A stretch of DNA of 61,396 nt, the filler included, from Nemertoderma westbladi (taxonomy: Eukaryota; Animalia; Xenacoelomorpha), in the NCBI GenBank assembly GCA_032718475.1. It is 3 parts of 3 records of this genome, joined end to end, with 100 filler letters (N's around TTAATTAATTAA, not from the genome) between each part and the next. Parts side by side here need not be neighbours in the genome. Positions count along the whole stretch, not along the records: positions 1 to 28,899 come from JAUCBJ010003234.1; 2 more parts are not named here. One strand, written 5' to 3'. The notes beneath the pieces are model-generated. The model searched no databases and was not told the origin of the DNA. It saw nothing but the letters and a program-made list of their open reading frames with translations. The position numbers and the translations under genes were made by a program. Below, piece by piece: positions 2,917-53,034 of this stretch; the first letter of the stretch is position 1, and every line of letters begins with the position of its first letter.

Positions 2917-3369
2917 ATGTTATCTACAGAGGACCTTGATATGTTTCCAGTGGGTGGTCACTATTTGGGCGCGTTTCCAGCTAATAAATTACCTAAATTA
3001 GATAATAATAAGCGGCAGGATTATGGTTTGATAGTAAATACCGATAAAGAGCATCTGCCTGGGATTCATTGGATCGCGATATATATACGAGATAATGAGG
3101 CTGAAGTATTTGACTCGTTTGGACCAAAATATCCAAACAGATGCATCGAAAAATGGCTTGAGAAAAATTCCGCAAGGTGGCGTACTACTCGCAAACAATT
3201 TCAAGACCCAAGGAGGACCACATGCGGTCTGTACTGTCTGTATTATTTGGTAAATTGTATTCACACAATCTATCCAATGAGAGCGTTTACAAATAATGTG
3301 GAAATTAATGAAATTATATTATATAAATGGCTTGTTAATTATTATAAATTAAACCAACAAACTTTGTAA
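2917..3369 (+). CDS. Adenain-like cysteine protease (capsid maturation protease)
   Basis: YLGAFPANKLP, IVNTD, GIHW (His), FDSFG (Asp), Q...TCGLYC (Gln, Cys); catalytic residues intact. Confidence 0.95.
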   Translation: MLSTEDLDMFPVGGHYLGAFPANKLPKLDNNKRQDYGLIVNTDKEHLPGIHWIAIYIRDNEAEVFDSFGPKYPNRCIEKWLEKNSARWRTTRKQFQDPRRTTCGLYCLYYLVNCIHTIYPMRAFTNNVEINEIILYKWLVNYYKLNQQTL

Positions 3370-3400: not shown

Positions 3401-4024
3401 ATGGATAATATTATTTTTGTTGATTTTCAATATTATAAGATAGACAATAAAGAGTATCCGGTAGTATTTAAAGAATTTGCTATTTTCGATTCTAATTACA
3501 CCAAAACTAATGTAAAGACGTTTTTAATTAAAGGCCCGTCTAATATTAAGTTATCAGCTTTAGATGCAGCTCACGTAAACAATTTACGGGATATGACTTC
3601 TCACTTGCCCTGGGACTACGGGGACATTTCTCAAGATGACTTTAAAAAATATATGAAGAGACATTTAAAATATAAAAAAAATATTCATGTATTTGGGTTG
3701 ATGAAGCGGGCAATATTAGTTTCCCAACTCGATGTTCTCGAGCCAAATTCGGTGGAGAGATTGGGAATATATAAGCAATATCACGATTATTTAACCCCTT
3801 GCCGGTTCCACGACCGATTTATTCGGTTTCACGACCGATTTATTCCACTAGAAAATAAATGCGCGTTCCACTTAAACATAGGGGATAACTGTCTGCGATA
3901 CTGCTCAGCAAAACGTGTTGGGGGGTATGAGTTACTACACTTTTTCATGAGAAAGCGTTTAACTGCGACTCATGATGATGATGATAAACAGAAAGAAATA
4001 ACTGCGGTGGAAGATGTACTGTAG
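3401..4024 (+). CDS. Polinton accessory protein, possible DEDD/RNase H-fold nuclease-like with C-terminal Cys/His cluster
   Basis: IFVDFQ...FKEFAI...HLPWDYGD...IHVFG..K...C..H...C pattern resembles an accessory ORF of invertebrate Polintons. The fold assignment is inference. Confidence 0.55.
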   Translation: MDNIIFVDFQYYKIDNKEYPVVFKEFAIFDSNYTKTNVKTFLIKGPSNIKLSALDAAHVNNLRDMTSHLPWDYGDISQDDFKKYMKRHLKYKKNIHVFGLMKRAILVSQLDVLEPNSVERLGIYKQYHDYLTPCRFHDRFIRFHDRFIPLENKCAFHLNIGDNCLRYCSAKRVGGYELLHFFMRKRLTATHDDDDKQKEITAVEDVL

Positions 4025-4890: not shown

Positions 4891-5093
4891 CCTATAAAAT
4901 CCCCTCACACTCTCTGTTACTAACTTTCAACATTCACTTTATGTTGTATGCTATACCGTTAACTTTTAGTCAGGAACCCCATCATTCAACCAGTCATATA
5001 ATGGCTCCACGCGGATACAATAGGTGTGGCCCGCAGTATACCTAACTAAGCCTATATAAAATCCACCACATTCTCTGTTACTAACATTCACTC
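4891..5093 (+). promoter_or_regulatory. Duplicated TATA-Inr-like module
   Basis: CCTATAAAAT...TCTCTGTTACTAAC...AACATTCACT.TATGTTG at 4891-4946 and again from 5051 (split by the transposon, continuing at 8630). A third CCTATATAAAA is at 8647. Confidence 0.5.
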
Positions 5094-5387
5094 CCCTGCA
5101 AACCACCAACGTTAATCTAACGTTGGGTTTATGTTAGACATTCGTTAAAAAATGACAGTTAGAATTTAACCATAAACCTACGTTAAAATACGTTAGAATT
5201 CTGTCAATTTTTAACGTTAATTTTTTACAGTAATTATACGTCAAAAATTTACAAATATCGGACAATACCATATTTTTTAACGTTACTTTAACGTTAATTT
5301 TTAACGTTAATTTTTTACAGTAATTATACGTCAAAAATTTACAAATATCGGACAATACCATATTTTTTAACGTTACTTTAACGTTAA

Positions 5388-6420
5388 TTTATGAAACTGG
5401 ATGTACGTTTCGGTTAACTTTATGAAACTGGATGTACGTTTCGGTTAACTTTATGAAACTGGATGTACGTTTCGGTTAACTTTATGAAAGTGGATGTACG
5501 TTTCGGTTAACTTTATGAAAGTGGATGTACGTTTCGGTTAACTTTATGAAACTGGATGTACGTTTCGGTTAACTTTATGAAACTGGATGTACGTTTCGGT
5601 TAACTTTATGAAACTGGATGTACGTTTCGGTTAACTTTGTGAAAGTGGATGTACGTTTCGGTTAACTTTATGAAACTGGATGTACGTTTCGGTTAAGTTT
5701 ATGAAACAGGATGTACGTTTCGGTTAACTTTATGAAACTGGATGTACGTTTCGGTTAACTTTGTGAAAGTGGATGTACGTTTCGGTTAAGTTTATGAAAG
5801 TGGATGTACGTTTCGGTTAACTTTATGAAACTGGATGTACGTTTCGGTTAACTTTATGAAACTGGATGTACGTTTCGGTTAACTTTATGAAAGTGGATGT
5901 ACGTTTCGGTTAACTTTATGAAAGTGGATGTACGTTTCGGTTAACTTTATGAAACTGGATGTACGTTTCGGTTAACTTTATGAAAGTGGATGTACGTTTC
6001 GGTTAACTTTATGAAACTGGATGTACGTTTCGGTTAACTTTATGAAACTGGATGTACGTTTCGGTTAACTTTATGAAACTGGATGTACATTTCGGTTAAC
6101 TTTATGAAACTGGATGTACGTTTCGGTTAACTTTATGAAACTGGATGTACGTTTCGGTTAACTTTATGAAACTGGATGTACGTTTCGGTTAACTTTATGA
6201 AACTGGATGTACGTTTCGGTTAACTTTATGAAAGTGGATGTACGTTTCGGTTAACTTTATGAAAGTGGATGTACGTTTCGGTTAACTTTATGAAAGTGGA
6301 TGTACGTTTCGGTTAACTTTATGAAACTGGATGTACGTTTCGGTTAACTTTATGAAACTGGATGTACGTTTCGGTTAACTTTATGAAACTGGATGTACGT
6401 TTCGGTTAACTTTATGAAAC
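5388..6420. repeat. 31-bp minisatellite, about 33 copies (TTTATGAAACTGGATGTACGTTTCGGTTAAC)
   Basis: Head-to-tail near-identical units without spacers; preceded by a 90-bp duplication (about 5206-5390). Confidence 0.97.
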
Positions 6421-6932
6421 GGATGAGTCCGGTAGCAACCTACGGGTCTCTGAAGTATAGATCTAAGCCTCCCATTGATAAATAAAAATTCCACAAATTT
6501 CTAATTCCGAATTCCAAAAATTCCACATTTCTAAAGCCTACTTTATAGTGTTATAGAAATTAAATTCAGAATTTCATACAAGAAAAAATCATACATAATT
6601 TTTGATTTTTTCATTGATCAATTACACGAGATTATGAATTTAAGCTTATGGTTTTAACACTTGAATTTGTTCAAAATTACATTTCACTGTATGTAACTGG
6701 CAATTTGAAAATCTATCGTAATGTGATAATAACGTGTATTATTAATATTATATCTAATACATAATTAAAATATATACATAATTATTATATGTAATATTGA
6801 TTAATCATACGTAATGTGTTAATTGTGAGTTAATACAATATAATTTTGTAAATATTAAGTGGCAAAGTTGTCTTCGGCCGTTAGGCCAGGGAAAACATTA
6901 CGCACAAAGTCTGACGAATTGTTTCCAGATAA

Positions 6933-7444
6933 GGGGGCGTTCATAAAGTATGTCACGCACTAGGGGGGGGGGGGGTCGAGCTTGCGTGACATTTTGTGAC
7001 AGGTGGGAGGGGGTTGTCGACCTTTGTGACGGTCACGGCGATGCTCTACGGTATGCTTTAATGTTAGATTGACTTTGACTAACACATTTGTAGATGAGTG
7101 GGAAACTTTAAGGAAAAAACAATAAACTCAATAACATTGAATTTAGTCCCTAACTTTAACAGGGCACGCCTGTCTAGTCTGCCTTGTACATGTACAGTAC
7201 TGTAGTTTGAAGCTGCTAAAGTATGTATGTATAGGCTTTTAGTAAGAACTACTTCAGTCAAAATGTTTCACTTTCTATTGTACTTTCTAACTGTTATTAA
7301 ATTACTGAAATAGAATAGTTTTCGTCTAGGGGGGGGGGGGGGGGGGGGGTTATAAATTTACGAAAATAGGTATTTTGTGACAGGGGGGGGGGGGGGGGGT
7401 CAAAAAAATGGCAAATTTGCGTGACATACTTTATGAACGCCACC
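6933..7444. mobile_element. PIF/Harbinger-type MITE
   Basis: 27-bp TIRs GGGGGCGTTCATAAAGTATGTCACGCA / TGCGTGACATACTTTATGAACGCCACC with TAA target duplication (6930-6932, 7445-7447). Confidence 0.88.
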
Positions 7445-7447
7445 TAA

Positions 7448-7640
7448 TTCCACCATATTTTTATTCACCAGAGGATACTCCAGTACCCATTAAAGGACGC
7501 CCTTGAGAAATGCGCCCTAGCTCGTCCCTTTAAAGCGTTCGTCCTGAAACGAAAACTCCCCCGACCCCTTTGCGGGGATCGAACCCATGACCTCTGGAGA
7601 GATGTTAATTAAAGGCAACGGATTAACACTACACTACAAG
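7448..7640 (-). mobile_element. tRNA-derived SINE head (body probably continues left of the MITE)
   Basis: Minus strand reads GTAGTGTAGTGTT (A-box-like)...GGGTTCGATCCCC (B box); no full cloverleaf. Boundaries approximate. Confidence 0.5.
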
Positions 7641-8833
7641 GGCGGGAAGAACATAAAAAATGTTAGATTTTTGCTTGATCAAATGTCGCGTCGAATGCTG
7701 GACATTGACATTGACATTGACATATAGATTATCTATCATTACTAATATCAATATTAATCATAACAACACATTTTGATTTCTCTGAATGCTATTTTTAATG
7801 CAACCACGGCGACAATAAACCGAGAGGATCATAGATTCGAGCTGAGTTTCAGCAGAGTAAGTGCAATACAAAAGACCTCAACTAGTTAAATTTATGCAAA
7901 AAAACCGTAAGTTAACAAGACTTGCGGTTTTTTGTCATCAGAATTTAATGAGGATTTCACATCTGGAAATGGCTTGGCGAGATCTGTTGTATGCATTTTC
8001 AATAATTACCAGAAGTAGCTCCGATGAGAGAAAGCTTGTAATTAAACTATTGTTATTAATTCCATTAGTCACCTGAGGTCAACCAACCCTAACCTAACTG
8101 TTTAATATGAGAATGCCTTCTTAGGTTGTTTCGAGTTATCACTGTCTACCGGTCTGACCGTCAAGATGTAAATTTAGACAGAGCCAGATAAGATAATAGC
8201 AATTGTCTGGAATATGTGATTATTTGATGTAAATTAACGTTAAGGTAATTAAGCGTTAATTATTATAATTATGTTTTTATCACTGTCAGTTGTTTGTAAT
8301 TTTTTAACGTTAAACATATAATATATTTTGACGATCCAAACTGATCGTCAGTAATATGTCATTTTTTAACGTTAAACATACAATATATTTTGACGATCCA
8401 AACTGATTGTCAGTAATATGTCATTTTTTAACGTTAAACATACAATATATTTTGACGATCGAAATACCTACCGTTTAAAATTAACGTTAATTTGCGTTAA
8501 TTTTTAACGTTAAAAGGGCGGCCAAACTAACGTTATTTATATGTATTATTAACGTTAATAATTAACGTTGGCATTGTCAGAAAATAATGTATATTAATGC
8601 ATTATTAACGTTAAATTGTTTGCAGGGTCTATGTTGACGGGGGGGGCCTATATAAAACATAGTTAGTTTATTTATGTATTCGCTTTTTTTTTAATTAGAT
8701 ATAAAATATAAAATATACAATACAATACAATACAAAAACCTACTGATACTGGTAACACACATTAGCCCTCTACGTAAAAGACGTGACTAATTATATAGAC
8801 CTATGAGTCTACTTGCTGTACGAGCAGACGAGT

Positions 8834-9199
8834 CTACTGACGTATTCTCGGATCGGTGGGAAGTAATAGATTTGGTGTTGGAACTTGAGCTGCCGCGGCT
8901 ATATCTTCATGTTCATGTTCATCCCAGTTTTCTCCCCTACTATAATTATCTAGGCATATCTGATGCGTCGCTCCAGGTTGTACTCTAACGTTTAGATTGA
9001 AGTTTTTATTGGTCGTCAATCTGGTTTGGTGATCTTGGCTGCCCATGGTTTTATTTTTAACCATTATGGTTATTTCTCCGTTGTTGTTTTTTAAATGTAA
9101 TTCGGTTACATTTAAGGATGTAAAGTAAAGGTCGTCTCCATCAACATCAAATTTTAATAAACAGTCGCTGCTGCTATTTTCAATGAAAGAAAATGCCAT
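8834..9199 (-). CDS. Polinton orphan protein, 121 aa, beta-rich
   Basis: ATG in AAGATGG context, upstream TATATATAAA (9336-9345) followed by CAGT, downstream AATAAA near 8668-8673; no recognisable family. Confidence 0.6.
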   Translation of the reverse strand: MAFSFIENSSSDCLLKFDVDGDDLYFTSLNVTELHLKNNNGEITIMVKNKTMGSQDHQTRLTTNKNFNLNVRVQPGATHQICLDNYSRGENWDEHEHEDIAAAAQVPTPNLLLPTDPRIRQ

Positions 9200-9888
9200 C
9201 TTGGATGTTGGTTGTCGGAACTGAAGTTTGCTAAGGTTAGTTTTTCAAATATGAAGATAACTTAAGCCTAGTCTATACCGGTATTTATTTTACAGTAGGG
9301 AAACAAAATTATAGTTCACTGTTAGAAAAATTGAGTTTATATATATTTTTGTAGAGGGTCACAGATGTGTACATTACAAAATTCACATAATTAACAAAAT
9401 GCACAACATAAACCTTTCCCATGAGGATTAGCGATATATGCTCTGTTCATTGTTCTATTCTGAATGTAGGGAGATGCATAGCGGATGTTTTAATGATATG
9501 TACCGATATACAGACTAGTAACAGATAGGATGGCATCGTCTTTGACTATGAATACCAGCACATACCCCTAATCTTTTCTCACCGAGCTTAGCGTTGCCTG
9601 CTGTACACACGCACACTCATAAGTAACAGATGCGCTATTGTGGCTCACTCGTGAGCTACAATGCCAAGTTAGCTAGCTAGCTAGCCGCGGCTGCTGAGTA
9701 TACTATGTCTACTTGAGTGTTACAAGAAACAATCGCTCTACTGAAGTTAATTTCCCCCTCAAACTAGTTGTTGATTTTAAAAAAATATTCATAAATTTCT
9801 TCTCCCTTCAATTTAATCTATATATTTTACAGTAAAAATCTCCACCACCAAACAGCAACAATAACAATAAATTTCACTCGTACCGGTA

Positions 9889-10443
9889 CTAATTATATTT
9901 TACATCAAAAACCCCCACACCAAACAATAATAAATTATTAACCAGCTTGTTGAAAATAGGATAATATATATGAAATTTAAACGGGGAACACATTAATGTA
10001 CATTTACCAGTGTAGAAACAGCAAACAACAACAATATTATTTATTCTGACTTTACAGTTATTGAATATTTCAGGGTCGTATGAAATTTCTAGTTTAACAT
10101 TATCAAATATAACATAAAACCCGATATTATTTATAAGTAACCTATAAATTACAGTATCGATACTAAAAATATAAGTACACAAATTGATTGATTTAAAAAT
10201 CAAATTAATGTTTGTTTTTTCTAATATATGTTTTTTCACTTTATTAAAGTTATATTTTCTACCGAGAATTGTTATTCGTCCATTTGTAAACATTAATATG
10301 GTTGCACCAAATACCTTATATATAAACTGATTAGGTTTGAGTACAATTTTACCATTCAATTGATTTTTTAATTCTTTCAAATTAAGTCCATAAATAATCT
10401 GCTTACAACTTATATTTTTATTTACTATTTGATAATTCATCAT
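9889..10443 (-). CDS. Virus-encoded TATA-box-binding protein (TBP)-like protein
   Basis: Two-repeat TBP pattern: IVN...LNLKEL...ATILMFTNGRITILG and SIN...SYDPEIFNN...CFYTGKCTL (compare TBP IQN, LIFSSGK, YEPELFPG, LIFVSGK). Likely start MMNYQIVN at 10443; the ORF track starts at 10470. Confidence 0.8.
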   Translation of the reverse strand: MMNYQIVNKNISCKQIIYGLNLKELKNQLNGKIVLKPNQFIYKVFGATILMFTNGRITILGRKYNFNKVKKHILEKTNINLIFKSINLCTYIFSIDTVIYRLLINNIGFYVIFDNVKLEISYDPEIFNNCKVRINNIVVVCCFYTGKCTLMCSPFKFHIYYPIFNKLVNNLLLFGVGVFDVKYN

Positions 10444-13400
10444 CAACACCATCGTCTTTTGGTTCTTCATAAATTGGTATATTTGATATTTTTATAGGTT
10501 TTTTGAGGTTTGTTTTATAGTGCCCCCAAGGAAGCGATTGATTTTTATTAAGCCAATAAAGTTTATCATCAAAGCTGCTGAGTGCAAATTTATTTTGCTT
10601 TAAGGTATAAATACGATGTAATTTAGATTGAAATCTGTGTATGTTTTTTTTATTTCTTCATTTGAGTTATAGGCTTTTAAATATTCTTCATGTGTAATAT
10701 TCGTTTCCACAACAGCTCTTGTAATACCTTTTGCTCTACGAATATTTTTGTTATTCCATTCCAAAATTGAATATAATTTTGGTCTTAAAAATACTGCTTG
10801 TTTAATTTCACGTGAGGCTAGTTCGTCTTTACAGTAATAGAGTTGGGATTTATTTTTATCGCTGTAGAGAGGGTGATCCTTAGGGTAATTGGAAGTATCT
10901 AAAATATTATTTTTAATTAATGCTTTTAAAAAATTATTCTGCGATGTATTATAATAACAACCTATCAAAGAGTCGGTGTCTGATGCGGCAATTTCAATAC
11001 GACAGTTTAATTCTTTCTCAATAGGTAGCAATTTATTGTAAAACAGCTCATACATATCCAATTTAGCCAAGTCCAACACAGCGCTACCAATAAACATAGG
11101 CTTATCGAGAGTTACAGAGTCTTTCACTAATAAATGTCCCGATAATGTATTATTGTATATTATAAATTGTTCATGATTAATACGATTTACCAATTGATCG
11201 CATTTATCGTTGCTATTTGCGATACGAAAGTTACATCGGTCACGTATCCTCTCTATTGATTTGCCAAACAGTGAATTATTGAGCAATTTCGCAACAGCAG
11301 TTTCAATGTAACTTTTTGCTAGGCGCCTTTGATTAATATTAAAATCTATGTAATTTTTAAATACAAATTCTTGTTGAAAAGAATATAATTTATGGAGCTT
11401 AGTAACAATTAATCCATGTTTTATATAAAATTTTAACAGTTTCAAATGTAAATGATAAAACTCTTTATCAAATTGCGTCAGCAAGAGTTTTGGTGTAGAC
11501 ATCCTATATTTACGGGAGGTACCTCTTTGTATCGATAAATTATTAAATTGTTCCCGCATATAAGGCGAAAGCATTGTTTCATTTATACTTAAATGCTCAG
11601 GGGCTAACGGTAATTGTAATGTTTGATCGTGAATAGCCTTAGGATAATTTAAATCACATATTAAAAAATATCCAGTAGATCCATCAATGTCTAAATCTAC
11701 CAAATACTCGATTAGTTTTTCAGGAATTGCATTCTCTAAATGTTTAATACTTACTTCTTTGAATTGCGAGGTGGGTAGTTTTTTACTTAAATTCCCAGAA
11801 TATAAAGAGTTGAAATCAATATTAAAAATATGGCATTCTTCCTTAGTAGAATCATATGTACTTGTTCCAGGTATATTTGATTCTATATAATGCTTTCGAC
11901 AAAATGAAACACCACCCCTAATTGATTTTTCAAAATCTCTATATGTCTGATAATCCTTTATTAATTCTATTTTACATTTATTATATTTTAGCGCGCAATC
12001 ATAGGTAAATGACGCAATACTACAGTAAAAAACCACTTCTAAATCGTAATTTTGTTTACAAACATTCCTAAAATTCTCAAATATATCAGCAAGCAAACAA
12101 ACATCGAGTTTTAAATAGGCTAAAAGATAATCTTTGAGATTCACACAGTCGAATTCTACCCATGATATTCCCGCAAACCTATAATCTTCAATTGTGCATG
12201 TTTTTTGTGTTAAGTTACTAAAAAAATTATTTATAGACGGCAAACCAGTATCATTAAATTTATTAATATCTGTCAAGTACTCGTATGGAAATACTCCTTT
12301 CCGTTTAATTGTTGAGTTATTCAAGTTTGGATAAAAATATTTCATTTCTTGTAGAGTAATAGGTAAAATTGAGCTTATATCATGACTCGCTACATCCTTT
12401 GTTGAACACTCAACTAAATTACTTAGGGAAAAGCTTAAAAATTGATATGTGTCTAAGAAACGTAACTCAATTTTTTTAGAAGTGTTTTTAATGGGGATAA
12501 ACGCACTAAGTGAAATATATCGTTCTGTATTTCTCGGTATAACCTTTATATCCCAATCGGAGTATTTCTTATCTCTAAATCCGGTTTGTAATATACAATG
12601 TATATCGTAATTACTGGAATTGTGCCCGCAAAGTACATACAGGTATCGTTTCAATGATAAACTTCGGTTACAACTATTACAGGCTGCTGCAATATATTTA
12701 CCTGTAATATGTGAATGATGCCTGTTTTTCCCAACATTATTATTTAAAGTAACATTACAATAGAAACAAAATTTTGCTTGTTCAAAATTTACAAAATCAA
12801 TATTAGTAAATGACATAGTTTTATGAGTGTATATGTCTGACCAACAACATAATTCAGTTAAATCAAAATATAATGAATCTAAGAAATCTTGAATACAATT
12901 ATTATTATTATTTGACTTTACGAATGTTTTCAAATGACATTTTGGGGGGTTAATTAATTCAGTATTGGGAACAATTAAATAACTCGCAGCACACGGTATA
13001 TGCTCCTGTATAAATTGATTATTAACTGAAGGTTGTAAGATACATTCTATATCAAAGTAGGTGACAAACAATGGGGATAAGGTCCTATCTAAATTTGTAA
13101 AACTAATGTGTGTTCTTTTTTTATTAGGTAGTTTCTCTCGTTGACTTCTTCCTTGGTAGCATGCAAGACGGTGTCGTTGGAGAACTTCCGATTGAAAAAA
13201 ATGAGCCAAACACCTTTCACAATATTTCCTATTCCCGATATGAAGAGCTCTCGTATTCAGCAATCGATTCAAGTTAGTTATGCAAACATAATGATTCGGT
13301 TTAGGTACATTGTTATTTTTTACTACAAGTAATATATTTAATAACTCTTTATCGGGTGTAATTTTACTAAACGGTGGTTGTCTTAATATAGATACGGGGG

Positions 13401-14478
13401 CGCGTTTGTTGTCGTTATTCCAACATAGTAAATTAATTATATATTTTGAATTTTGTTTTTCAAAAAGTTTAATCGCTAACAGCCACTCTGTTGGATAATC
13501 TTTGTTCCCGTTGTCAAAAATGAAATGACTCATATAATTTTTGTACGATGAAGTACGGTTTTTATTGCTTTTCACTTTGCTACCAAATTTTGCGGATATA
13601 ATTGCCCATTTAAAACAGTCATTATCAGCCGATTGTACATTTATAACACACTGTTTACCTGATAGAGCCTTAGGTAATTCCATATATCCATGCCCCTTAT
13701 ATAGTAACGACTTACACTTAGATTCAGCTAATTTAATTTCAACCCTTAATAAAGATTTAATACGCCACCCCGAACCACGTGTGTTAAAGATGGCTATTTT
13801 TTGTAATATATTTCCCAGCACATACTCAAACCATGTGTCAAAACTTTGCGGCGAATCTACAGTATTAATAGCACCACCGGAAGAATTAAAATAAAAGGTT
13901 TCCAATTGCTCACCTTCTGAAAAATGTGATCTGTACATTAATACATTTAGACCTAACCACAGTCTAAGAACATTCATTTCTTTCAACCTGTCTAATATTA
14001 ACTGAAGAATATTACCTCGAATTTGTGTTAATGCTGTTTCTACATCGGGATAATCTCTAGAAGTTGGGAGGTCGTGGACATAAATTTCAAGACGATTATC
14101 GTGAGCTTCTTGTTCCTGCGTAAAAATTGTTGCGCATGTACCAAGAGCCACCCTTAAGTTTTTTCTGGATATTATATTTTTATGTTGCGGAAATTTACGC
14201 TTTCTTGTGTAGTAACATTTCAAGTGACAGTCGTGTCGTATATAATTCTCATATGTATACTCTTTATTACAGGTAGAACAAGTCAATTGATAGGTGCGGA
14301 ACTCCATTTCTTTACAACCAGTAGTCGATTCATGTCGTTTACAAATTTTGCTGCATGAAGTCACAACATGACACTTAAAACAAGAATAACTTTCAAAATG
14401 TGACCGTAGGTGGCGTAAGTAATTATGTTTAGTTACATTCATATGACAGAATGGACAACATATTGTTATTTTATCCAT
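10418..14478 (-). CDS. Protein-primed family B DNA polymerase (group 2 pPolB) with one frameshift near the C-terminus
   Basis: N-terminal C2H2 fingers, GSGW, NVQSADNDCFKWAI (OTU-like), YFDIEC, EndoVII-like CFYC...RHHSHITGKY...CNSCN, HNSSNYD, FLDT, KGVFPYEY, IRGG, DFNSLY, KLLNNSLFGK, DTDS. The conserved tail ALSSFDDK...PWGHY is in another frame after the 8-nt homopolymer at 10644-10651, with stop at 10418-10420. Confidence 0.96.
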
Positions 14479-14593: not shown

Positions 14594-14799
14594 ATTTGTG
14601 ATGGAGCATAGTCAACGAAGAAGAGATGGGACGTGTCATAATCATCGACGAATAAGAAAAGAGATAGGGTGCAACGTGGTTGAATGGTTGGTTGGTTACG
14701 TGGATAGGAAATATGTGAAAGAATATGAATCATAGGGTTGTGTGTAATAATAATCAATAATTATTATAAAAACGTGCAGTATAATGTTAGTAGTAGTAG

Positions 14800-15485
14800 C
14801 CTTTCAATATGGCACAGATGCTGCGGGATCGGTTAGCTTGAGTAACTACTTGGAAATGTTCGTATACGTGTAGCTGGAACGTGGCGGAATTTCATGCACA
14901 TGTATCATACTGAGTGGTTGGTTTGGCGACAGCAGTTGAGTAGCTCTATCAATGGAGGGACGTAAATCGTTGAGTTGGCAATCGATATAATATACTGTAA
15001 TATAACGACTTGGTATATGCATCGTGTAGATGGCCACGTTATAGTTTTAGTCACCATATACAGTATGTGGAGGTGGTAGCGTGGCGAAAAGGGGGAATAA
15101 TCTGAGGGTGTATCGCTGTTGGTGGGTGGGTAACAGCAGTTGATCGAATAGCGATGGGATGGGGGCTAGCCATGCATCGAGAAGTTAGGCTACGCGAAGA
15201 TGAATATGCATTGGATGGTTGTTGCAGCAATGATACGAATCAATACTATCGGTTGGTAGGTAGGTAACAGCTGCCATCGAGTAAGGCGGGCAACGCGAGG
15301 TTAGGCTACGCATAGGTGAATACGCTACGATTGGTTGATGGTAACTACCGATGATGGTGACAGATGTGGCCAATTAAACACCGTAATTTAGCATCGGAAT
15401 TTGGCATTTTTAATAGTCCTCCGAGATGTAGCCCGTAGCCCAAGCTAGGGAGGACTTCGGCGGGGTCACCTATTCTTCTACTACT
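14800..15485. repeat. Probable right terminal inverted repeat region of the Polinton, with internal degenerate repeats
   Basis: Non-coding, GC-richer than the viral genes, ends CTACTACT; GTTAGGCTACGC at 15184 and 15300; GTTGGTRGGTRGGTAACAGC-like copies. The partner TIR is not in the window and the inner boundary is unknown. Confidence 0.55.
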
Positions 15486-16580
15486 AGCGTTCACGCTAAC
15501 GGAGAGTTGGGTGGCCGAGAAGATAGGATTAAAGACCAGGCCAAGTAAGATGGTGGTGACCACAATATCGAGCAAAGACGAGGTCATGAAGATGAGCACG
15601 GGATGATGTGAAATTGGAGCGATATAACACCAGGGTGCGACTATGGGGCTACCATCGAACCCATCCAAATAATAGAGTCGATAAACATAAACACCAGGCG
15701 ACCTACAAAGATCGAGGTCGAGCAATACCAGTACCTGGATGTCATCGACTTCTTCGTACCCGAACTAGATGTCCTGAAAGGCTTACTCATAGTCGGCATG
15801 AACTGTCCGACGGCCCATGAGAGGCTGCAAACCATCTTCAGCGACAACAAAGAGCGAGACCCGGTGGCCATTCTCACGCCATTCAGATGGACGCTCAGTG
15901 GCCCAATAAAGACGAAGATCCTGTTTAGCGTGTCCGAATCCTCAGGGTGCATGTTCGCAGGAACGATGAGGGAGATGAATGAATGAAGGAGCAGAGGAAC
16001 AACTCAAGAGGCTGCTAAGGCAGGACTTCGAGGGTTAAAGGAGACTGGGGTAGGAACCTCGGTAGAGGATAAACAGGCGCAGGAGAGCGTCAGGGGATCC
16101 ATGAAGTGTGAAGGGGGCGATATACCATAGGGATGGCATGGAAGGAACCGAATGTGCCCCTACCAGACAATAAAAGGATGGTCATGACGAAACTCCGAAA
16201 GTTAAAGCAAACGCTTAGGCGGAGTCCGGAGAAGAACGACTACATGCATAGGACCATCAAGAAGTATGTAGACCAGGGGTGGGCCGTGGAGCTACCAGTT
16301 GATGAACCAGATACCGACAGGACTTACTATATGTCACTTCATGTGGCCTTAGACCCCAAGAAGGGCAAGCTGAGGATGGTGGTTGATGCCTCTGCTAAGA
16401 CGACGGCAAAAGCTTTAATGATTACCTACTTGAAGGCCCCAATATTTACAACTCGGGGATAGAAGTTCGTTAAGGTTTAGAAATTGAAAACAGGCCTTCA
16501 CATGTGATATAGAGGGCATGTTTAACCAAGTGCGGGTGACTGAGGGGGATAGCGATAGCCAATGCTTCCTGTGGTACAAC
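15486..16580 (+). pseudogene. Decayed BEL/Pao LTR retrotransposon pol fragment (protease to RT)
   Basis: AFTLTESWVAEKIGL, LLIVGMNCPTA...PVAILTPFRWTLSGP, WKEPNVPLPDN...YYMSLHVALDPKKGKLRMVVDASAK, NDYLLEGP, DIEGMFNQV...FLW; several frameshifts and stops. Confidence 0.88.
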
Positions 16581-18584
16581 GGCGAAGAAGAACCATTCCC
16601 GACCCCAAGAAGAATTAACCCCGAGAAAAGAATTCCACCCCACATCCAATATTAGATTGGATTCCAGCGGAATTGGAGCGCACTTAAGGTTGATGCTATC
16701 TTCTCACCGGGAAGATAGCATGGGGGGAGGTGTAAGCGGATCCAATTCGCTGCACCACACAGCGGAAAATGGGTAAAGTGGCTTTTTACCAATTAAAGTT
16801 GGCTAGGTGACATTACCAATATAATGTCACCTAACAACCAATGAAGGCAATACACATTGCCAGCCACAAGGAGAGATGAGAGGCTACAAGCCATCTCAGG
16901 GGGACGAAGGAAGCTAGAACGTGGGTATCAGAGAACAGGGAGTGCCAAGGGAGGGAAGAATAGGTTAGCCAAATGGTGGGGCAGAACATCATCTGATTGG
17001 GATGCATCCATTGGCCAGGCCAAGTACCAAGTAGCAATATTCCATGTGTTAGTAATATAACCGTTGCCTTTATTACCTGTTGTTCAGTTGGTTTGTGTAG
17101 GGTTGTGGAAGCAGGACGGTTTAGACCATCGTCAGTAACCGTGCTATTATTGTATTCTGATTGTGCTATTATTGTATTCTGACATTACAAACAACTGCCA
17201 CTAAAAACTCAGTTACTCTTTCGGCCATTGGCCTTCAGATACCACAAGCCTTTCAGCAGCCAGCGGACGCAGCGACGTGTACTACCGAAACGCAAAACAC
17301 ACCGGTCGGGATTCCCTCGCCAACTCGGGGATCCCCGTCACAAAACGTCCAATAGACGACACGACAAAATGAGCAAAGAAAATGACGACAGTGTTCAGTA
17401 AAACTGAACGGACACAGACGGTGACTCAGTTTGCTTCAGTCAACTATAGTCAAGATTACGGTGGCTGAATTCGGCCAAAATTAATTATATTATGGAAACA
17501 CGTTTTTGGTGATGTTGTAAAATTAGTTATATTATGAAAACACGTTTCTGGTGATATTGTAAAATTAATTATATTATGAAAACACGTTTCTGGTGATTTT
17601 GTAAAATTAATTATATTATGAAAACACGTTTCTGGTGATTTTGTAAAATTAATTATAATATGAAAACACGTTTTTGGATGAACTTGCAAAATTAATTATA
17701 TTATGAAAACATGTTTTTGGATGAACTTACAAAATTAATTATATTATGAAAACACGTTTTTGGTGCTGTTGTAAAAATAATTATATTATGAAAACACGTT
17801 TTTGGTGCTGTTGTAAAAATAATTATATTATGAAAACACATTTTTGGATGAACTTACAAAATTAATTATATTATGAAATCACGTTTTTGGTTGAACTGGC
17901 AAAATTAATTATATTATGAAAACACGTTTTTGGATCAATTTTCAAAATTTATTCAATTCTGTAAACACGTTTTTGTTGTTGATTATTAGGCCTAGGCCTA
18001 ATGTACGATGCTATGCCTACTGCTGTACTGTGCTATGCCTATTACTGTACTACTACTACTATGCAGCTACATAGCAATGCGCAATAATTTTTCTTGTCCG
18101 TTTAAATCCTATTTTTGTCCTTTTTTTTTACTTTTTATGTCCTCCAAAAATCTACCGTTAGGTTCCTTGCTACTGGTTTCTCTACTGCTGTTCTATTAGG
18201 CTATAAGTACCGGTATTAGTATATATAGAGCACTATTTTGCAGTATTGCATTGTATGTAGGTATAAAGCATATAAATAATTATACTGTCTGACTGTATTA
18301 TACTACATTACAGCATTAGGTACTGACTCACTGATACTGTGATATGTGCAGTTGTAAATATGATAGGCCTAATTGCTGAAATGTGATAAGTCCATAGTAT
18401 AAGTCGTTTTGTTTTATTCACTGTTCAACTTTCTCCTGTTTTATTATGTGCAGTTTTATTTATACGCTTCTATGACAGCGGGTCTCCACCCACATAATAT
18501 AATAATAATAATGATAAAGGTAATTTCAGAATTTTAGTACCAGTACCGGATTTACATAGTTTTATTGTTTATGTTCATGACATA

Positions 18585-25498: not shown

Positions 25499-26540
25499 TT
25501 ACTCAGTTTGATAGCTATGAAATGTACTTGACCTTGGATTTAGTCGTTGGATGTTAATAAAAATGCTTGCTCTTGGATTTACTATCCGATGACTGAAAGC
25601 ATGTTTTAACAAATCCCAGAGACAGACACTGGAATGGAATCGAAAGAATATCGCCATCGGTGCAACTGTGTGGAGCATCATGTGCCAAGTTTTTATTCCG
25701 TAAAAATTCTTCTGCACCGGGTTGGCATCCACTTTTGTTTCAAAAATGCTGCTACACCACATTGCCATATTGGAAAGTAGAGCGAACACCATAAAACCTT
25801 TACTCCAAGTCTCGCCATTCGGCATTGGTCGTCGTTGTAATCCATCAAGTACAACACCTGCTTGAACTGTGATCTCTATGAAGTGAAATGTGTATATGGA
25901 GCCGGCCATTGCTTTTTCGTAAGGACTAGATGTATTATCAAATATTGCGGACACCAAACTGAATGCGTCTATAAAATACATACCAATAAGTGAAATTAAT
26001 AGAAGCTCATAATCTACACATGTAAGATCTTTCTGCTCATATTGATGTTTCAGTTTAAGAATGGCCCCAATGATCATCATAGTCAGTGTCATCACTATCA
26101 TCATGGCTATATTATAAGTCGCATACCACATCATGTATTTATTTGTTTCGTAGCTGCTGCCTTTGGATGAATTTCGGTCTAATAAAACTAAAAGGGAGAT
26201 CCGTGTCACTAGTGTAATAGTGCCGAGAACTAGACCAGTAGCCATTGCACGTGCGCCGCTGCCACTCAGAATAGCTACACGAACATCTTGAATGTTAACT
26301 GTTTCATACGACTCTCGTTCTTGCTGGGCATCAACACGGTTTAAATTTTTACGAGCTGCTTTAATGTTTTTGAACATGGAAATCAATATAATCGCGCCTA
26401 TCAAACAATACTCAACGCGACATGGCAACAGAAAATGCCTGATATTATAGGAGAATTCACGAAGATTTTGGGTTGAGTTTAGATATTTGCATTTGTAGTG
26501 GCGATGGTTTATGTGATCGTCAGTGGCAACTGTTGAGGTG
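25499..26540 (-). CDS. OTOP: Otopetrin-family proton channel, terminal exon
   Basis: FLLPCRVEYCLI, GLVLG, FALLSNMAMW, FYG..TW...APMAIFFRFHSSVCL otopetrin signatures; multiple TM helices; CAG acceptor at 26541-26543 with an open frame from there to the stop at 25499. Confidence 0.92.
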
Positions 26541-28899: not shown

Positions 28900-28999
28900 N
28901 NNNNNNNNNNNNNNNNNNNNNNNNNNNNNNNNNNNNNNNNNNNTTAATTAATTAANNNNNNNNNNNNNNNNNNNNNNNNNNNNNNNNNNNNNNNNNNNN
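28900..28999. other. Assembly gap with TTAATTAATTAA six-frame-stop linker
   Basis: N-run, 12-mer, N-run; identical structure at 48305-48404. Confidence 0.97.
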
Positions 29000-29046: not shown

Positions 29047-32000
29047 TCAGTACACTGTACCGTGGTAGTCGTTGATAAGGATGTAGTAGCGGTCGATGCG
29101 GTGGAAGCTATCATAGCTTGAGGCAATGTTGTTATCCGCATCTAAGGCAATTTCGCCACCAGATATAACGTTTGAGAGGGCGTTGCTCACACTGTACTGT
29201 GCCGTTCCAATAGCGTCGATGTAACGGGATGTCGTGGCCAAACTAGAATGGCCAAGTTGTTTCTGGGCATATGTCGCTGGTAGATGTTGGTCAACAATAG
29301 CTTGAGCAGTTGTCTTCCTATATGACATCGGGGTGATCTTGCGACCATCCGTGTTGATTCCAGAGCGTTTTACAACATCTTTCATTATCTGACCGAAGGT
29401 ATTCTTCCCAACGGGCTGGTTGCAAAACCATGATGCGCCATCCTTAGGTAGATTGGGTTTCGGGCGAACCCAATAGGGGTCTTCATCTATTATTTTCCCG
29501 TTGGGGTACCGTTTCTCCATGTATTTTTCGTGCAAGAACACGGGACATACATTGCGGTCTGTAGGTACCTCGTACGCCTTTGGGATAACCACTCTACCTG
29601 GCGTGGAACCCTTTCTGGTTTTAGTATTTCGCTCTTTGAGTTGTAGGAAGTGAAGACCCTTCTTTTGGTCAAAGTACTTCTTCACATCACCAACCATCAT
29701 GTTTCTCATTTCTAACCCAGGGCGGCAACCAAATTATGTTGTTAAAACAACGTACAATGTGTTTCGCAACCCCTGTGGGGTAGAATGTCCTAGCTGCCCA
29801 CTTGACTTCATGATGGAAAAATCATGGGAATCCATTGGGTCGCTGGAGTTTGGGTTATTACCCTTGCCATCGGCCTTGAGCTGCGACAGCCTGGCACGAA
29901 ACACCGCCTCTGTGTCTTTAAATTCTTTTAGCTCGAGGACATTCCCAATACATAGTTCCTTGTAATGACGCAATAGGCCATAGAAGTAACTCCTAAGGGT
30001 CGAGGTTTCCAGTTTTTCTCCTGATTTTTTTTTGTATCTCTTAATGAAATTATTTGTGTGGTATGCTAGTTCCTCCATACTCATACATGTTATTTGTGTG
30101 GTATGCTAGTTCCTCCTTACTCATACACATACATGTTATTTGTGTGGTATGCTAGTTCCTCCTTACTCATACATGTTATTTGTGTGGTATGCTAGTTCCT
30201 CCTTACTCATACATGTTATTTGTGTGGTATGCTAGTTCCTCCATACTCATACATGTTATTTGTGTGGTATGCTAGTTCCTCCTTACTCATACATGTTATT
30301 TGTGTGGTATGCTAGTTCCTCCATACTCATACATGTTATTTGTGTGGTATGCTAGTTCCTCCTTACTCATACATGTTATTTGTGTGGTATGCTAGTTCCT
30401 CCTTACTCATACATGTTATTTGTGTGGTATGCTAGTTCCTCCATACTCATACATGTTATTTGTGTGGTATGCTAGTTCCTCCTTACTCATACATGATATT
30501 TGTGTGGTATGCTAGTTCCTCCTTACTCATACATGTTATTTGTGTGGTATGCTAGTTCTTCCTTACTCATACATGTTATTTGTGTGGTATGCTAGTTCCT
30601 CCTTACTCATACATGTTATTTGTGTGGTATGCTAGTTCCTCCATACTCATACATGTTATTTGTGTGGTATGCTAGTTCCTCCTTACTCATACATGTTATT
30701 TGTGTGGTATGCTAGTTCCTCCATACTCATACATGTTATTTGTGTGATATGCTAGTTCCTCCATACTCATACATGTTATTTGTGTGGTATGCTAGTTCCT
30801 CCATACTCATACATGTTATTTGTGTGGTATGCTAGTTCCTCCTTACTCATACATGTTATTTGTGTGGTATGCTAGTTCCTCCTTACTCATACATGTTATT
30901 TGTGTGGTATGCTAGTTCCTCCATACTCATACATGTTATTTGTGTGGTATGCTAGTTCCTCCATACTCATACATGTTATTTGTGTGGTATGCTAGTTCCT
31001 CCATACTCATACATGTTATTTGTGTGGTATGCTAGTTCCTCCATACTCATACATGTTATTTGTGTGGTATGCTAGTTCCTCCATACTCATACATGTTATT
31101 TGTGTGGTATGCTAGTTCCTCCTTACTCATACATGTTATTTGTGTGGTATGCTAGTTCCTCCTTACTCATACATGTTATTTGTGTGGTATGCTAGTTCCT
31201 CCATACTCATACATGTTATTTGTGTGGTATGCTAGTTCCTCCTTACTCATACATGTTATTTGTGTGGTATGCTAGTTCCTCCATACTCATACATGTTATT
31301 TGTGTGGTATGCTAGTTCCTCCTTACTCATACATGATATTTGTGTGGTATGCTAGTTCCTCCTTACTCATACATGTTATTTGTGTGGTATGCTAGTTCCT
31401 CCTTACTCATACATGTTATTTGTGTGGTATGCTAGTTCCTCCATACTCATACATGTTATTTGTGTGGTATGCTAGTTCCTCCATACTCATACATGTTATT
31501 TGTGTGGTATGCTAGTTCCTCCATACTCATACATGTTATTTGTGTGGTATGCTAGTTCCTCCTTACTCATACATGTTATTTGTGTGGTATGCTAGTTCCT
31601 CCTTACTCATACATGTTATTTGTGTGGTATGCTAGTTCCTCCTTACTCATACACATACATGTTATTTGTGTGGTATGCTAGTTCCTCCATACTCATACAT
31701 GTTATTTGTGTGGTATGCTAGTTCCTCCATACTCATACATGTTATTTGTGTGGTATGCTAGTTCCTCCATACTCATACATGTTATTTGTGTGGTATGCTA
31801 GTTCCTCCATACTCATACATGTTATTTGTGTGGTATGCTAGTTCCTCCTTACTCATACATGTTATTTGTGTGGTATGCTAGTTCCTCCTTACTCATACAT
31901 GTTATTTGTGTGGTATGCTAGTTCCTCCTTACTCATACATGTTATTTGTGTGGTATGCTAGTTCCTCCTTACTCATACATGTTATTTGTGTGGTATGCTA

Positions 32001-43295: not shown

Positions 43296-46200
43296 TGATG
43301 TGTTGATAGATATAAAAGCAAATACTCTGCATGATAATTAATTATTATTTCCACTGACAGATAGAGCATACTGACTGACACTGACAGTTATATACCGGTA
43401 GTACGACCCGCCACCTATCTCCCTCAGACAAGTATTATAATTATATAATTATATAATTCATCAGTTTGAATTTCCCTCTCGCTCACTTTAAATCATTTAG
43501 ATTGATATCGTATCACGTCCCCCTCAAGTCGAAGGAGCATTAAAATGTGGATTCGATTTTTAGTCTCTTAAAGCATTGAAATTATGTAGATTGTTTCCAT
43601 GTAATTTATGTAGTTATTCCAAATCGTTGCACTGGGGAATGTTTTCTGGTACTACGACGAGGTGTCATTAGGATTTGGTTTTGTAATTCTGTTGGTATGT
43701 TTTGTTCTTTTGATGAGTTATTGTATGGACGCAAAAAGCGACGATTGCGCCAATATATGCGCCCACTACCGAGGCGAACCATATAATCCCGACGCTTCCC
43801 CACAGCAACAATAACACCGAGCTTGTCCCAAAGATGGTTACGTGGGTTTTGTATGTCAACTTGGCAACCAACCTTCAACTGTGTAAGGGAATGAGCCGTT
43901 CTATTGTAGTAATCTTTATAGTCATTACGGTACTGTTTATAGTTTGCATCAGCTTTATCAGCAGCTATTTGATAATCAGCTGTGAACGAATGGTGATGTG
44001 CCACCACAAATGATGAGAGAGGTCTACCAAATAGAATTTGTGCTGGGCTACGCCCATCGATTCTTGGGGTGTTTCTAAGCTCCAACAAACCTCTTTGTAG
44101 GGCTTCTTCTGGATCTGGTAGGTGAGCTGTTTTTTGAACTAATCGTTTTAGTGACTTCACAGCTGCCTCTGCATGGCCATTTGCTTTTGGATGATATGGA
44201 GATGATTTCTCATGATGTATGTTCCAGCGTTTGCAGAAATCAGTGAAACGTTTTGAATTGTATTGGGGTCCTCCGTCTGTTGTTAACTTTTGGGGTACAC
44301 CAACATTCGGGAACCAGTTACGCAATGATTGAATAACCTTTGTGCTGTTAGCTGATCCATGAAAACGGGTAAGACAGGGCCAACCAGATAACTTATCTAC
44401 AAAGGCAAGATAGTCATTACCTCCAAAGGTAAATATGTCGCTTGATGTTGATTGAAATGGTAATGATGGTGTTGGTTCAGATATAAGTGGCTCTGAAGGT
44501 AAATGACTTTGATATTTGCGGCAGCTACTGCAGTTAGAAACCTTGTTGTCAATATCATTATCAATATTGGGCCAGTATACTACTTGACGGGCTCTGCGTT
44601 TAGTGCGTTCTTGACCTTGATGTGAAGAATGCAATTCTTCTAATATTTTGCCGCGTAGTGCTTTGGGGATAAGTAGTCTTGCACCTTTGAGAATGATCCC
44701 ATTATCAGTGGTTAGTTCACCCCGTACTCCCCAATACTTATGCAGGGCAATGGGAAGGATAGATTTATTATCTGGAAAACCAGCGATTATGACTTCCAGG
44801 AGATCTTTGTATTCTGAGTCGGTGGTGGCAATTGAATGTATTGTATCAATACCAATATTTGGGAGGGCCACTATACCAAAGTCATCAACAGCTTGTAGGG
44901 TTCTTATAGATGGTGAAACTGTATCATGACATTCACCATCTTCATCTTCAGGATTGGAATGTTGAATTGGAGCCCGGGATAGAGCATCCGCTACCTTGTG
45001 TTCTTTGCCTGGGACCCAGGTTGCTTTAAATCGAAACTGTTGTAATTTAAGCAACATTCGTAGAAGTCTTGGATTTTCTACGTTATTAAGAGCATATGAG
45101 TTCAAGAATGGGAGTAATGGTTTATGATCAATTATTAATTGAAATTCTGTGCCCAGAAGGAAGTTTTGGCATTTTTTTGTAGCCCAAACCACAGCAAGAA
45201 GTTCTAACTCGATCATTGCATAACGTGTCTCCACGTCTGCAAGGTATCGACTTCCAACCTGTATGAGCTTCCAAGATGATCCGTCCAATTGCCATAAGGC
45301 ATAACCGAGACCCTTTGTCCGTGAAGCATCTGTTTCCAATTTTGTGGGAAGACGTAGGTCAAAAAATGATAAGGTCGGGGTGTCTGTGAGTGATTTGCAT
45401 GTTTTGTTAAAGGCATCCTGATGATTGGAATCCCATAGGAATTCTACTTGTTTGGTTAGTAATGAGCGAAGTGGTTCTGTAAGCTTTGCTACTTCTATAA
45501 ATTCTGCAAATTGTTGGGTAAGACCTAAGAAGGAACGTAGATCTGTCTTATTTGTGGGAATGGGAAAGTCTTGTATTGCTTTCAATTTGTCTGGATCTGT
45601 TTTCCAACCATCAGAATTAATAATGTATCCACAAAATTTAACTTCTGGTTTGGCAAATATGAATTTCTTAGCACTTAAAGTAATCCCATTATTTCGAGCA
45701 CATTGAAGGATCTGATGGACGCGTTCTAGATGTTTATTATAATCATTATCATATGCAATAGCATCATCCACAACTTTTTTGAAATTTTGTATCCCTTCAA
45801 AAGCTGCGTCTGTGCGACGATTATACTCATCCCCTGCACAAACAAAACCTTGTGGGTCACGAAGGTAACGATATCTACCCCATGGTGTTATGAATGTTGT
45901 TAATGCCCTTGATTTTTCATCTAAGGGGACTTGCCAATATCCATGTCTGGCATCGATTGTGGTAAAGTACGAAGAACCTCGTTGAATTCCTGAAATTGCA
46001 TCCTTTGGGGTTACACAGGGATGTATTACTGTATTTACCTGATTGTTGAGGTGAGTAAGATCCACTGTCATTCTTTTTTCAGTGGAGTGTGGCTTATCAA
46101 CTATAACAATAGGGTGACACCAGTTACAAGGTTGAGTTACTCTTTCAATGATTCCCTTCCCTTCCATATCATCGAGTTGGAGTTTTATCTGATCGCGATA

Positions 46201-51780: not shown

Positions 51781-53034
51781 CTACAATTCACCAGCTAAAT
51801 AAACCAAATGAGAACCAATCAGAAACCTACAACTTTCCCCGTTAACAACGTAAAGCTGCTCAGCGTCGACAACAAAAGTTGAATCACCGGGAATCTCGAT
51901 AGTTCCCTTTAGCGGGTCGCTAAACATCGGTAGACGACGGGGACCGAGAGTCGAATCCTCGAACCTACAGATTCGAACCTTCGAGTTCGATAAACCGAAC
52001 CGAGCGATGCGATTCGCTACCGAGTCTCCGGTCTCCCCGTCCAACACAATGACGTCACGGGAGAAGCAGCCCACATGCGGTTGGCGGTTAATCGCCAAGA
52101 CAACAGCGGACGCCGGGCAGGAGAACTCGGAGAACGGTTTCCCGGGGCAACACTCGTCGCGGATTCGATCACCGGCGTCCGCGGAAAATTTAACGAGAAT
52201 ATTATCGATCTTCAAGGTGCTGCGCAAATAATAAATATTTAATTCTAGAATTAGCTTTTCGTCGATATCAGAATGGATATCTAAAGCTTTTACTCCTAAT
52301 TTAGCAAATCTTTCTTTTACTATGGCGACGAAAGGCATTGATTTCTTTGAGTATCTCTTGAGTTCGGGGACTGCAGACAAGGATTTAGCGATGAGTTTAT
52401 TCTCTGGGAAGTCGTCGTTATTCTCCCTGACTAGTCGACGCAGTAGGTTGAGTATGGCGGCCTGCCAGGGCGGGTAGACCTCGGCGACGTAGACCACCAA
52501 CCGACCCGGATGCGACTTTCCCGGCTCCCCCCGGCGTCCCGGCTGTACGAAACCCCGCAGTCGCAACCGCAGGTCGTGCACCGTCTCCGCGAGATACTCC
52601 CCTTGCGCCAACACGACCCCGCTGTACTCCTCCACTAGCGGCCAATCCGCGCGGAGTATCGAACCCTCCCGCCCAATCAGCGTCCAGATGTGCTCGCACA
52701 CGTGCGGGCATATCGGGGACAGCAGTAGAACCTGCAGCTCGATGAACATGCGGACCAACTCGCGATGCATCCCAGTGGAGCAGCAGACCTCCCTGTACCG
52801 GTCCCGCGCCGTCTGGAACTCGAAGAACCCAGTTCGTAACGCCTCTTTATACATTGTCGCGTCGTAGAATCGCGTCGTCTCCGACACTCCTCGTCGCATC
52901 TCCGCGTCGAACATCCGATCCGCGAACATCTCGTCGATCGGCCCTTCGCGAAGCCCGGACTCCGAGGTCAGCGTTTCCTTCACCCAATCCAGGAAGGTGT
53001 TGAGTCGAAGGATCGCAACTTCCGCGGTTTGTAT
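51781..53034 (-). CDS. LARS1: Cytosolic leucyl-tRNA synthetase, terminal exon (anticodon-binding and C-terminal domains)
   Basis: TTCCAG acceptor; IQTAEVAILRL...YKEALRTGFFEFQ...LLSPICPHVCEHIW...YPPWQ...CCPGKP; phase 0. Confidence 0.96.
   Translation of the reverse strand: MQTAEVAILRLNTFLDWVKETLTSESGLREGPIDEMFADRMFDAEMRRGVSETTRFYDATMYKEALRTGFFEFQTARDRYREVCCSTGMHRELVRMFIELQVLLLSPICPHVCEHIWTLIGREGSILRADWPLVEEYSGVVLAQGEYLAETVHDLRLRLRGFVQPGRRGEPGKSHPGRLVVYVAEVYPPWQAAILNLLRRLVRENNDDFPENKLIAKSLSAVPELKRYSKKSMPFVAIVKERFAKLGVKALDIHSDIDEKLILELNIYYLRSTLKIDNILVKFSADAGDRIRDECCPGKPFSEFSCPASAVVLAINRQPHVGCFSRDVIVLDGETGDSVANRIARFGLSNSKVRICRFEDSTLGPRRLPMFSDPLKGTIEIPGDSTFVVDAEQLYVVNGESCRFLIGSHLVYLAGEL

Follow-up and report, generated by a model that had tools for sequence, protein, structure and literature searches.

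Gene organization of the locus

The DNA analysed is from Nemertoderma westbladi (GCA_032718475.1). The window, which is the whole stretch of 61,396 nt that was analysed, consists of three joined parts, and positions 1–28,899 come from JAUCBJ010003234.1. Its left part carries genes of a Polinton-type element, among them a gene for a protein resembling the TATA-binding protein (TBP). The features are as follows.

1–252, + strand: 3′ end of a penton-like gene similar to the next one, cut by the window edge
236–1102, + strand: putative minor capsid (penton-like) gene, similar to a 640-aa protein of the related locus L066 (E = 2e-5)
1092–1652, + strand: basic 186-aa ORF, putatively core-protein-like from its position and make-up, with no family over the cut-off
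1655–2914, + strand: major capsid protein, with 45 relatives, two of them named capsid or major capsid protein
2917–3369, + strand: adenovirus-type cysteine protease (Pfam PF00770, E = 1.3e-5, over the cut-off)
3401–4024, + strand: last ORF of the capsid block, 207 aa, with no known family
5094–8627, no strand assigned: 3.5-kb insertion between the capsid and TBP/polymerase blocks, ending in 10-bp inverted repeats and flanked by a 2-bp (TC) duplication
8834–9199, − strand: ORF of 121 aa, with no known family, downstream of the TBP gene, with a canonical TATA-like box at about 9337–9345
9889–10443, − strand: TBP-like gene of 184 aa, intronless and two-lobed, matched by Pfam PF00352 and by an independent profile
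10418–10657, − strand: frame with the polymerase C-terminal motif, overlapping the TBP start by 26 nt
10490–10520, − strand: two canonical TATA-like boxes, a candidate promoter, 53 and 76 nt upstream of the TBP ATG
10600–14478, − strand: Polinton-type family B DNA polymerase of 1292 aa, with 597 relatives, many with PF03175
14584–14592, − strand: canonical TATA-like box, 112–114 nt upstream of the polymerase ATG

The penton-like, basic, major capsid, protease, and 207-aa genes form a tightly packed block. The minor capsid (penton-like) label of the 236–1102 product is putative and does not come from a family match; the L066 640-aa protein that it resembles adjoins the L066 capsid gene. The major capsid protein matched a 450-aa protein of L066 (E = 9e-28).

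The insertion at 5094–8627 splits the Polinton. Its terminal repeats begin with CCC, it contains an internal 31-bp satellite in 33.7 copies, and its ends are presumably EnSpm/CACTA-like. The presence of a bounded insertion between them suggests that the capsid block and the TBP/polymerase block belong to one element. No integrase or packaging ATPase gene was found in the window, where the element is cut at position 1, and neither a TFIIB nor an RNA polymerase gene was detected by family scans of the visible part of the element. Terminal inverted repeats of the element would need a partner arm, and none was present among the 25 longest of 74 inverted pairs; the window could include one end only.

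The polymerase is of the protein-primed family B class, and related loci carry integrase, ATPase, and protease genes. In a FastTree phylogeny, it grouped with proteins that include those of a sea spider assembly. In this copy, the main frame stops at 10600, a break close to its 3′ end. The frame at 10657–10418 carries the conserved C-terminal motif, with 46% identity to P0002 over 54 aa. As contigs of all four compared runs differ there, the break is probably peculiar to this copy or to its assembly.

Short AGT/ACT repeats at 14780–14950, with loose contig ends near 14851, may mark the end of the element or an inner repeat border. To the right of the Polinton, broken ORFs at 15345–17068 resembled, by eye, a BEL/Pao-type retrotransposon. 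Elsewhere, the window contains an otopetrin fragment (25499–26428), a tyrosine recombinase with DUF3504 (29047–29709), an intact Gypsy-type LTR polyprotein of 1463 aa (43606–47997), the C-terminal part of a leucyl-tRNA ligase (51781–52983), and N gaps near 28900 and 48303. The otopetrin, Gypsy, and leucyl-tRNA ligase sequences indicate an animal host.

Identification of the TBP-like gene

The initial annotation had described an intronless ORF of about 185 aa that contains both TBP repeats and overlaps the 3′ end of the polymerase gene. Both points were borne out, as the ORF encodes 184 aa on the − strand, matches PF00352 in two stretches, and shares 26 nt with the frame at 10657–10418. Its stop codon lies at 9889–9891, and in-frame ATGs are present at 10470 (giving 193 aa) and 10443 (giving 184 aa). 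The + strand of 9889–10443 is closed by many stops. The G+C content of the ORF is 23%, and an ORF of this length was obtained in none of 2000 shuffles of the surrounding 900 nt.

The Pfam PF00352 match scored 25.5 bits (E = 1.2e-5) against a curated cut-off of 22.9 bits. We also used an independent profile of 16 archaeal, viral, and eukaryote-type TBPs, from which the query was excluded. This profile picked two of the 4682 frames of the window and 112 related loci, namely the TBP of L066 (E = 2.6e-7) and the ORF described here (E = 3.6e-5). The ORF scored 21.1 bits with the profile, compared with 10.4 bits for the best of 2000 shuffles. A single profile alignment covered residues 7–150, so that both lobes lie in one chain. 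When the two Polinton TBPs alone (this ORF and that of L066) were combined into a profile, TBP chains accounted for 11 of 12 PDB matches (E = 0.007–0.03). A PDB search with a five-row alignment was not counted as evidence, since three of its five rows are archaeal TBPs. Searches with PF00352 and with an independent profile and the look-alikes in the ESM Atlas agreed on a TBP.

In the ESM Atlas, 29 of 30 matches were TBP clusters (score 0.94), with a low recognition value; the nearest cluster was half viral, with Nucleocytoviricota the commonest, which we treat as a lead only. The NCBIfam TBP model gave a weak match to residues 7–149 (E = 0.004), far under its cut-off. Single-sequence searches with the ORF found no relative in a 5.8-billion word search, a 1.84-billion phmmer search, viral contigs, or PDB sequences. 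AlphaFold2 models were of low confidence, with pLDDT values of 32 from one sequence and 33 from the five-row alignment. Foldseek found no match to the latter, a model too poor to inform on the saddle fold.

Copies of the gene and coding constraint

The stretch was matched in five runs of four studies, none of them listed as RNA, and many variant contigs aligned to it. Contigs bridging the TBP and polymerase genes were present in three runs (X3, X4, and X5). Among the 40 differences listed of 61 found among the copies, 36 fell within the TBP ORF; 17 were synonymous, 19 non-synonymous, and none created a stop, and 23 of the 36 were at third codon positions. The expected synonymous share was 0.19–0.26, against the 17/36 observed (p = 1e-4 to 5e-3), and dN/dS was roughly 0.27–0.40, a test that is rough because many differences come from one diverged contig and doubly hit codons were classed one change at a time. 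The sole length change listed within the ORF was in frame. One diverged contig carried 53 differences over 289 nt with no gap.

Taken together, the profile searches and the pattern of substitution confirmed the predicted product of 10443–9889 as a real, constrained, and strongly divergent two-lobed TBP of a Polinton-type element.

We rejected a processed paralogue of the host on the basis of the 20–23% identity, the overlap with the polymerase gene, and the bridging contigs in three runs. The need for an intron was also rejected, as both TBP lobes are within one frame.

Conserved and replaced residues

Residues were mapped in an 18-row TBP alignment, using the yeast reference positions given in Table 1 of PMC12529657. 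The motifs IVN, SIN, MFTNG, PEIF, and CFYTG, noted in the initial annotation, are all present. Three of the four DNA-intercalating Phe had been counted as kept; in the alignment, all four are kept (F40, F52, F127, and F143). Both strand-1 Asn had also been thought to be retained, which held for the first lobe (N8 or N10, the register being ambiguous between alignments) but not for the second. The second-lobe position is not N87 of SIN; it corresponds to Thr97 in the 18-row alignment and to Thr90 in the two-sequence profile. The spacing from Thr97 to the stirrup Tyr is 25 residues, compared with 26 in the eukaryote-type TBP L144, and this Asn has probably been replaced by Thr97.

L50 is kept. 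L60 and M151 stand in place of the base-reading Thr pair, N128 in place of the Pro that follows the third Phe, T58 and T149 in place of two Val, and C141 in place of one Leu. Among the non-Phe base-contact positions, only the equivalents of N69 and L114 are identical (positions from Table 1 of PMC12529657). The stirrup residues D123 and E125 are kept at both TFIIB-contact positions, as judged by aligning sequences only. The stirrup is the best-kept motif in the 18-row alignment, while the base-reading residues are changed. The two stirrup glutamates of TBP are TFIIB contacts (PMC7221094), and the Phe wedge bends DNA (PMC12529657).

The first two Phe are 12 residues apart, compared with 17 in cellular TBPs, indicating a 5-residue deletion in the first lobe. 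This deletion would presumably remove TFIIA contacts. The first-lobe helix stays basic, so that its composition gives no support for escape from Mot1-type regulators.

A second Polinton TBP and its distribution

We collected related-polymerase loci from three collections (80, 2, and 30 loci; 112 in total). The TBP survey consisted of a Pfam scan of 150 cluster representatives of mid-size ORFs, which left out five large known clusters and a few others, and a profile scan of all frames. A TBP was found in one of the 112 loci, and in one of the 17 loci of 10 kb or more. This locus, L066, is a near-complete Polinton: besides its 162-aa TBP (Pfam E = 7e-8), it carries polymerase, integrase, ATPase, protease, and capsid genes. 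The L066 TBP cluster has 33 members on contigs of up to 21 kb, and the gene is intact on contigs of 17–21 kb. The proposal of the initial annotation, a Polinton-type element with a divergent TBP of its own, is supported by the profiles, the linkage to the polymerase gene, and this second example. The initial annotation had named two refuting outcomes, the lack of a TBP fold in structure or profile searches and homologues not associated with Polintons; neither arose in the profile searches or the gene context, whereas the structure models were uninformative.

The L066 TBP retains all four Phe, together with the second Asn; of the two stirrup positions, the second still has Glu and the first has Asn. 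Its first lobe is still shorter than that of the 184-aa protein. As a single query, it retrieved no TBP from the PDB or from viral contigs. Among the 10 L066 ORFs scanned, there was no TFIIB gene. In the FastTree phylogeny, the L066 polymerase was not the sister of the polymerase described here, and the L066 TBP gene does not adjoin the polymerase gene of L066. The occurrence in one of 112 loci and the non-sister position of L066 mark TBP as an accessory gene of some Polinton lineages. The TBP tree joined the two Polinton TBPs (95/83), and the branch of the 184-aa TBP measured 6.4 changes per column; we do not claim a common origin, given the very long branches and the odd make-up of its alignment row.

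Some of the related loci have other features. Weak dUTPase-like and F-box-like genes and a DUF4326 gene lie at L066:9028–10850. A VLTF3-like gene is present at L007:5447–6085 (Pfam E = 1e-16), and a PC4/AT-hook-like gene, under the Pfam cut-off, at L021:12439–13191, both in other Polinton loci. The 30 Polinton-type polymerase loci L083–L112 come from bacterial and archaeal MAGs and are likely mis-binned eukaryotic elements.

Search for promoter sequences

The motif TATAWAW was present 30–150 nt before five of eight genes, including those for TBP and the polymerase, compared with a background of 0.24; this enrichment is weak and post hoc (p = 0.024). The two boxes upstream of the TBP gene sit inside the 3′ coding region of the polymerase.

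We searched the capsid block for a word of its own. Before its five visible genes, no exact 5–7-mer was common to four; the start of the penton-like gene was taken 3 nt late in these searches, which shifted one searched interval by 3 nt. When one mismatch was allowed, eight of nine span/length tests were at the shuffle level, and one gave p = 0.035. The L066 promoters showed no clear common word in a search run with no control.

Canonical TATA-like boxes are also present on the + strand at 4892, 5052, and 8648, two of them within a 37-bp repeat (89% alike). These boxes have no long ORF behind them and are antisense to the 121-aa ORF; they are possible promoters of small RNAs or short ORFs.

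Possible roles of the Polinton TBP

To our knowledge, how Polintons/Mavericks switch from silent integrated copies to capsid making is an open question, and we know of no transcription factor in their core gene set. Considering the TBP identity, the synonymous bias, the pattern of kept residues, and the second Polinton with the gene, we lean slightly toward reading the Polinton TBP as a viral promoter factor, which would bend element DNA and recruit host TFIIB and RNA polymerase II. The four kept Phe would bind AT-rich DNA in the promoters of the element and bend it, and the kept acidic stirrup would recruit host TFIIB and, through it, host RNA polymerase II. The target word may be the ordinary TATA boxes before five of the eight genes or a word outside the window. 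The protein may have a changed sequence preference and may be independent of TFIIA/TFIID control. Host TFIIB and RNA polymerase II are proposed as partners since neither TFIIB nor RNA polymerase was seen among the genes of the element. There are two precedents: the herpesvirus protein ORF24 is a viral TBP shown to work with host RNA polymerase II (PMC12529657), and the TBP and TFIIB of CpV-BQ1 have been proposed to redirect host RNA polymerase II (10.1101/2025.01.22.633263). The initial annotation had suggested that the TBP redirects host polymerase or serves as a decoy, which is plausible.

Several points stand against the promoter-factor reading. Canonical TATA boxes are readable by host TBP, which would leave a viral TBP with no obvious job. 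The changed base-contact positions could also mean weak or lost specific binding. Ravarani et al. (PMC7221094) argue that binding of host TFIIB by viral TBPs is in general unlikely. In addition, the gene is missing from most Polinton loci, L066 has Asn at the first stirrup position, and no private word was found before the genes searched.

The same residues can be read in other ways. A decoy for host shut-off would bind host TFIIB or Brf via the stirrup, or occupy host TATA boxes, and thereby block host transcription. This would fit the stirrup being the best-kept motif while the base-reading residues are changed, and the promoters of the element look canonical and could run on host TBP. However, the four Phe are kept in two distant Polintons, whereas a pure protein decoy would not need them, and a leaky inhibitor would be costly to an element that resides in many variant copies; we regard a decoy as unlikely. 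The overlap of the TBP and polymerase genes and the lack of a private promoter word in the searches would suit an architectural DNA-bending protein acting in replication, packaging, or integration-site choice and not in transcription, and TBP with Brf1 reportedly guides Ty3 integration. Such a role appears distinctly unlikely, as the L066 TBP gene is not beside its polymerase gene and the TFIIB-facing acidic residues are kept.

The changed base-reading surface recalls KSHV ORF24, and the protein might act in a herpesvirus-style late switch that uses a private non-TATA word and other viral proteins (e.g. the product of the 121-aa or 207-aa ORF) and bypasses TFIIB. Yet no private word was found in this element, nor clearly in L066, and ORF24 has large extra domains but no acidic stirrup, whereas the Polinton TBP keeps the stirrup and has no such domains, which makes a switch of this type quite improbable in our view. 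Finally, the gene could be a decaying passenger, that is, a TBP paralogue captured from the host that does nothing for the element. Its extreme divergence (6.4 changes per column), three sequence searches that returned no homologue, and the broken polymerase of this copy would be expected of a passenger. This explanation is very improbable and largely refuted by the open frame with its synonymous bias; moreover, the diverged contig has 53 differences and no gap over 289 nt, the key residues are kept, and a second lineage has an intact gene on contigs of 17–21 kb.

If the promoter-factor reading is extended, several Polinton lineages may use the smallest viral transcription switch yet seen, a bare rewired TBP that would plug into host TFIIB without a viral TFIIB or polymerase and would be interchangeable with captured factors such as the VLTF3-like protein of L007 and the PC4-like protein of L021. 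We consider this extension possible but doubtful. A conserved Polinton TBP is a single small protein whose target on DNA and partner in the host are open to in vitro study.

Comparison with known systems

Viral TBPs are well known, and a Polinton TBP is not undescribed, a point that the initial annotation had left open. The legend to Fig. 5 in Starrett et al. 2021 (PMC8502044; preprint 10.1101/697771) labels a TBP-like gene for MELD viruses with an adintovirus-like PolB. As in our locus, the gene belongs to a mid-size linear dsDNA element with the same polymerase class. The difference is that theirs is a legend label, and the accessible text of the paper gives no carrier element, residues, or role. 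In the literature searched, from which subscription papers and Repbase notes were excluded, this label was the only mention of a Polinton/Maverick TBP, and the protein had never been studied.

The Polinton TBP shares with cellular TBPs (PF00352; PDB 1qn3, 1rm1, and 1mp9) the two lobes, the four Phe, the G-K/R hairpins, the acidic stirrup, and a core of about 180 aa. In contrast, it is 20–23% identical to archaeal TBPs, with substitutions at the second Asn, both Thr, two Val, and the Pro that follows the third Phe. It would represent a natural TBP in which the bending wedge and the TFIIB contact are kept and the base-reading residues are changed.

KSHV ORF24 (PMC12529657), which works with host RNA polymerase II, has a TBP fold, four Phe, and a base-reading face that is altered, and the Polinton TBP is predicted to be similar in these respects. 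ORF24 has 752 aa, with RNA polymerase II-binding and extra DNA-binding domains, needs five partners, reads TATTWAA, and lacks the acidic stirrup, whereas the Polinton TBP is a 184-aa bare core that keeps the stirrup and for which no box was found.

The TBPs of Nucleocytoviricota and mirusviruses (PMC7221094; CpV-BQ1) are likewise divergent viral TBPs, and TBPs are also reported in probable mirusvirus relatives (PMC10675990). The former viruses are far larger and nearly always encode their own TFIIB (PMC7221094), whereas none was found in the visible element or the L066 ORFs. Most viral TBPs co-evolve with their own TFIIB (PMC7221094), and the combination of a kept wedge and TFIIB contact with changed base-reading residues in the Polinton TBP would be the opposite pattern.
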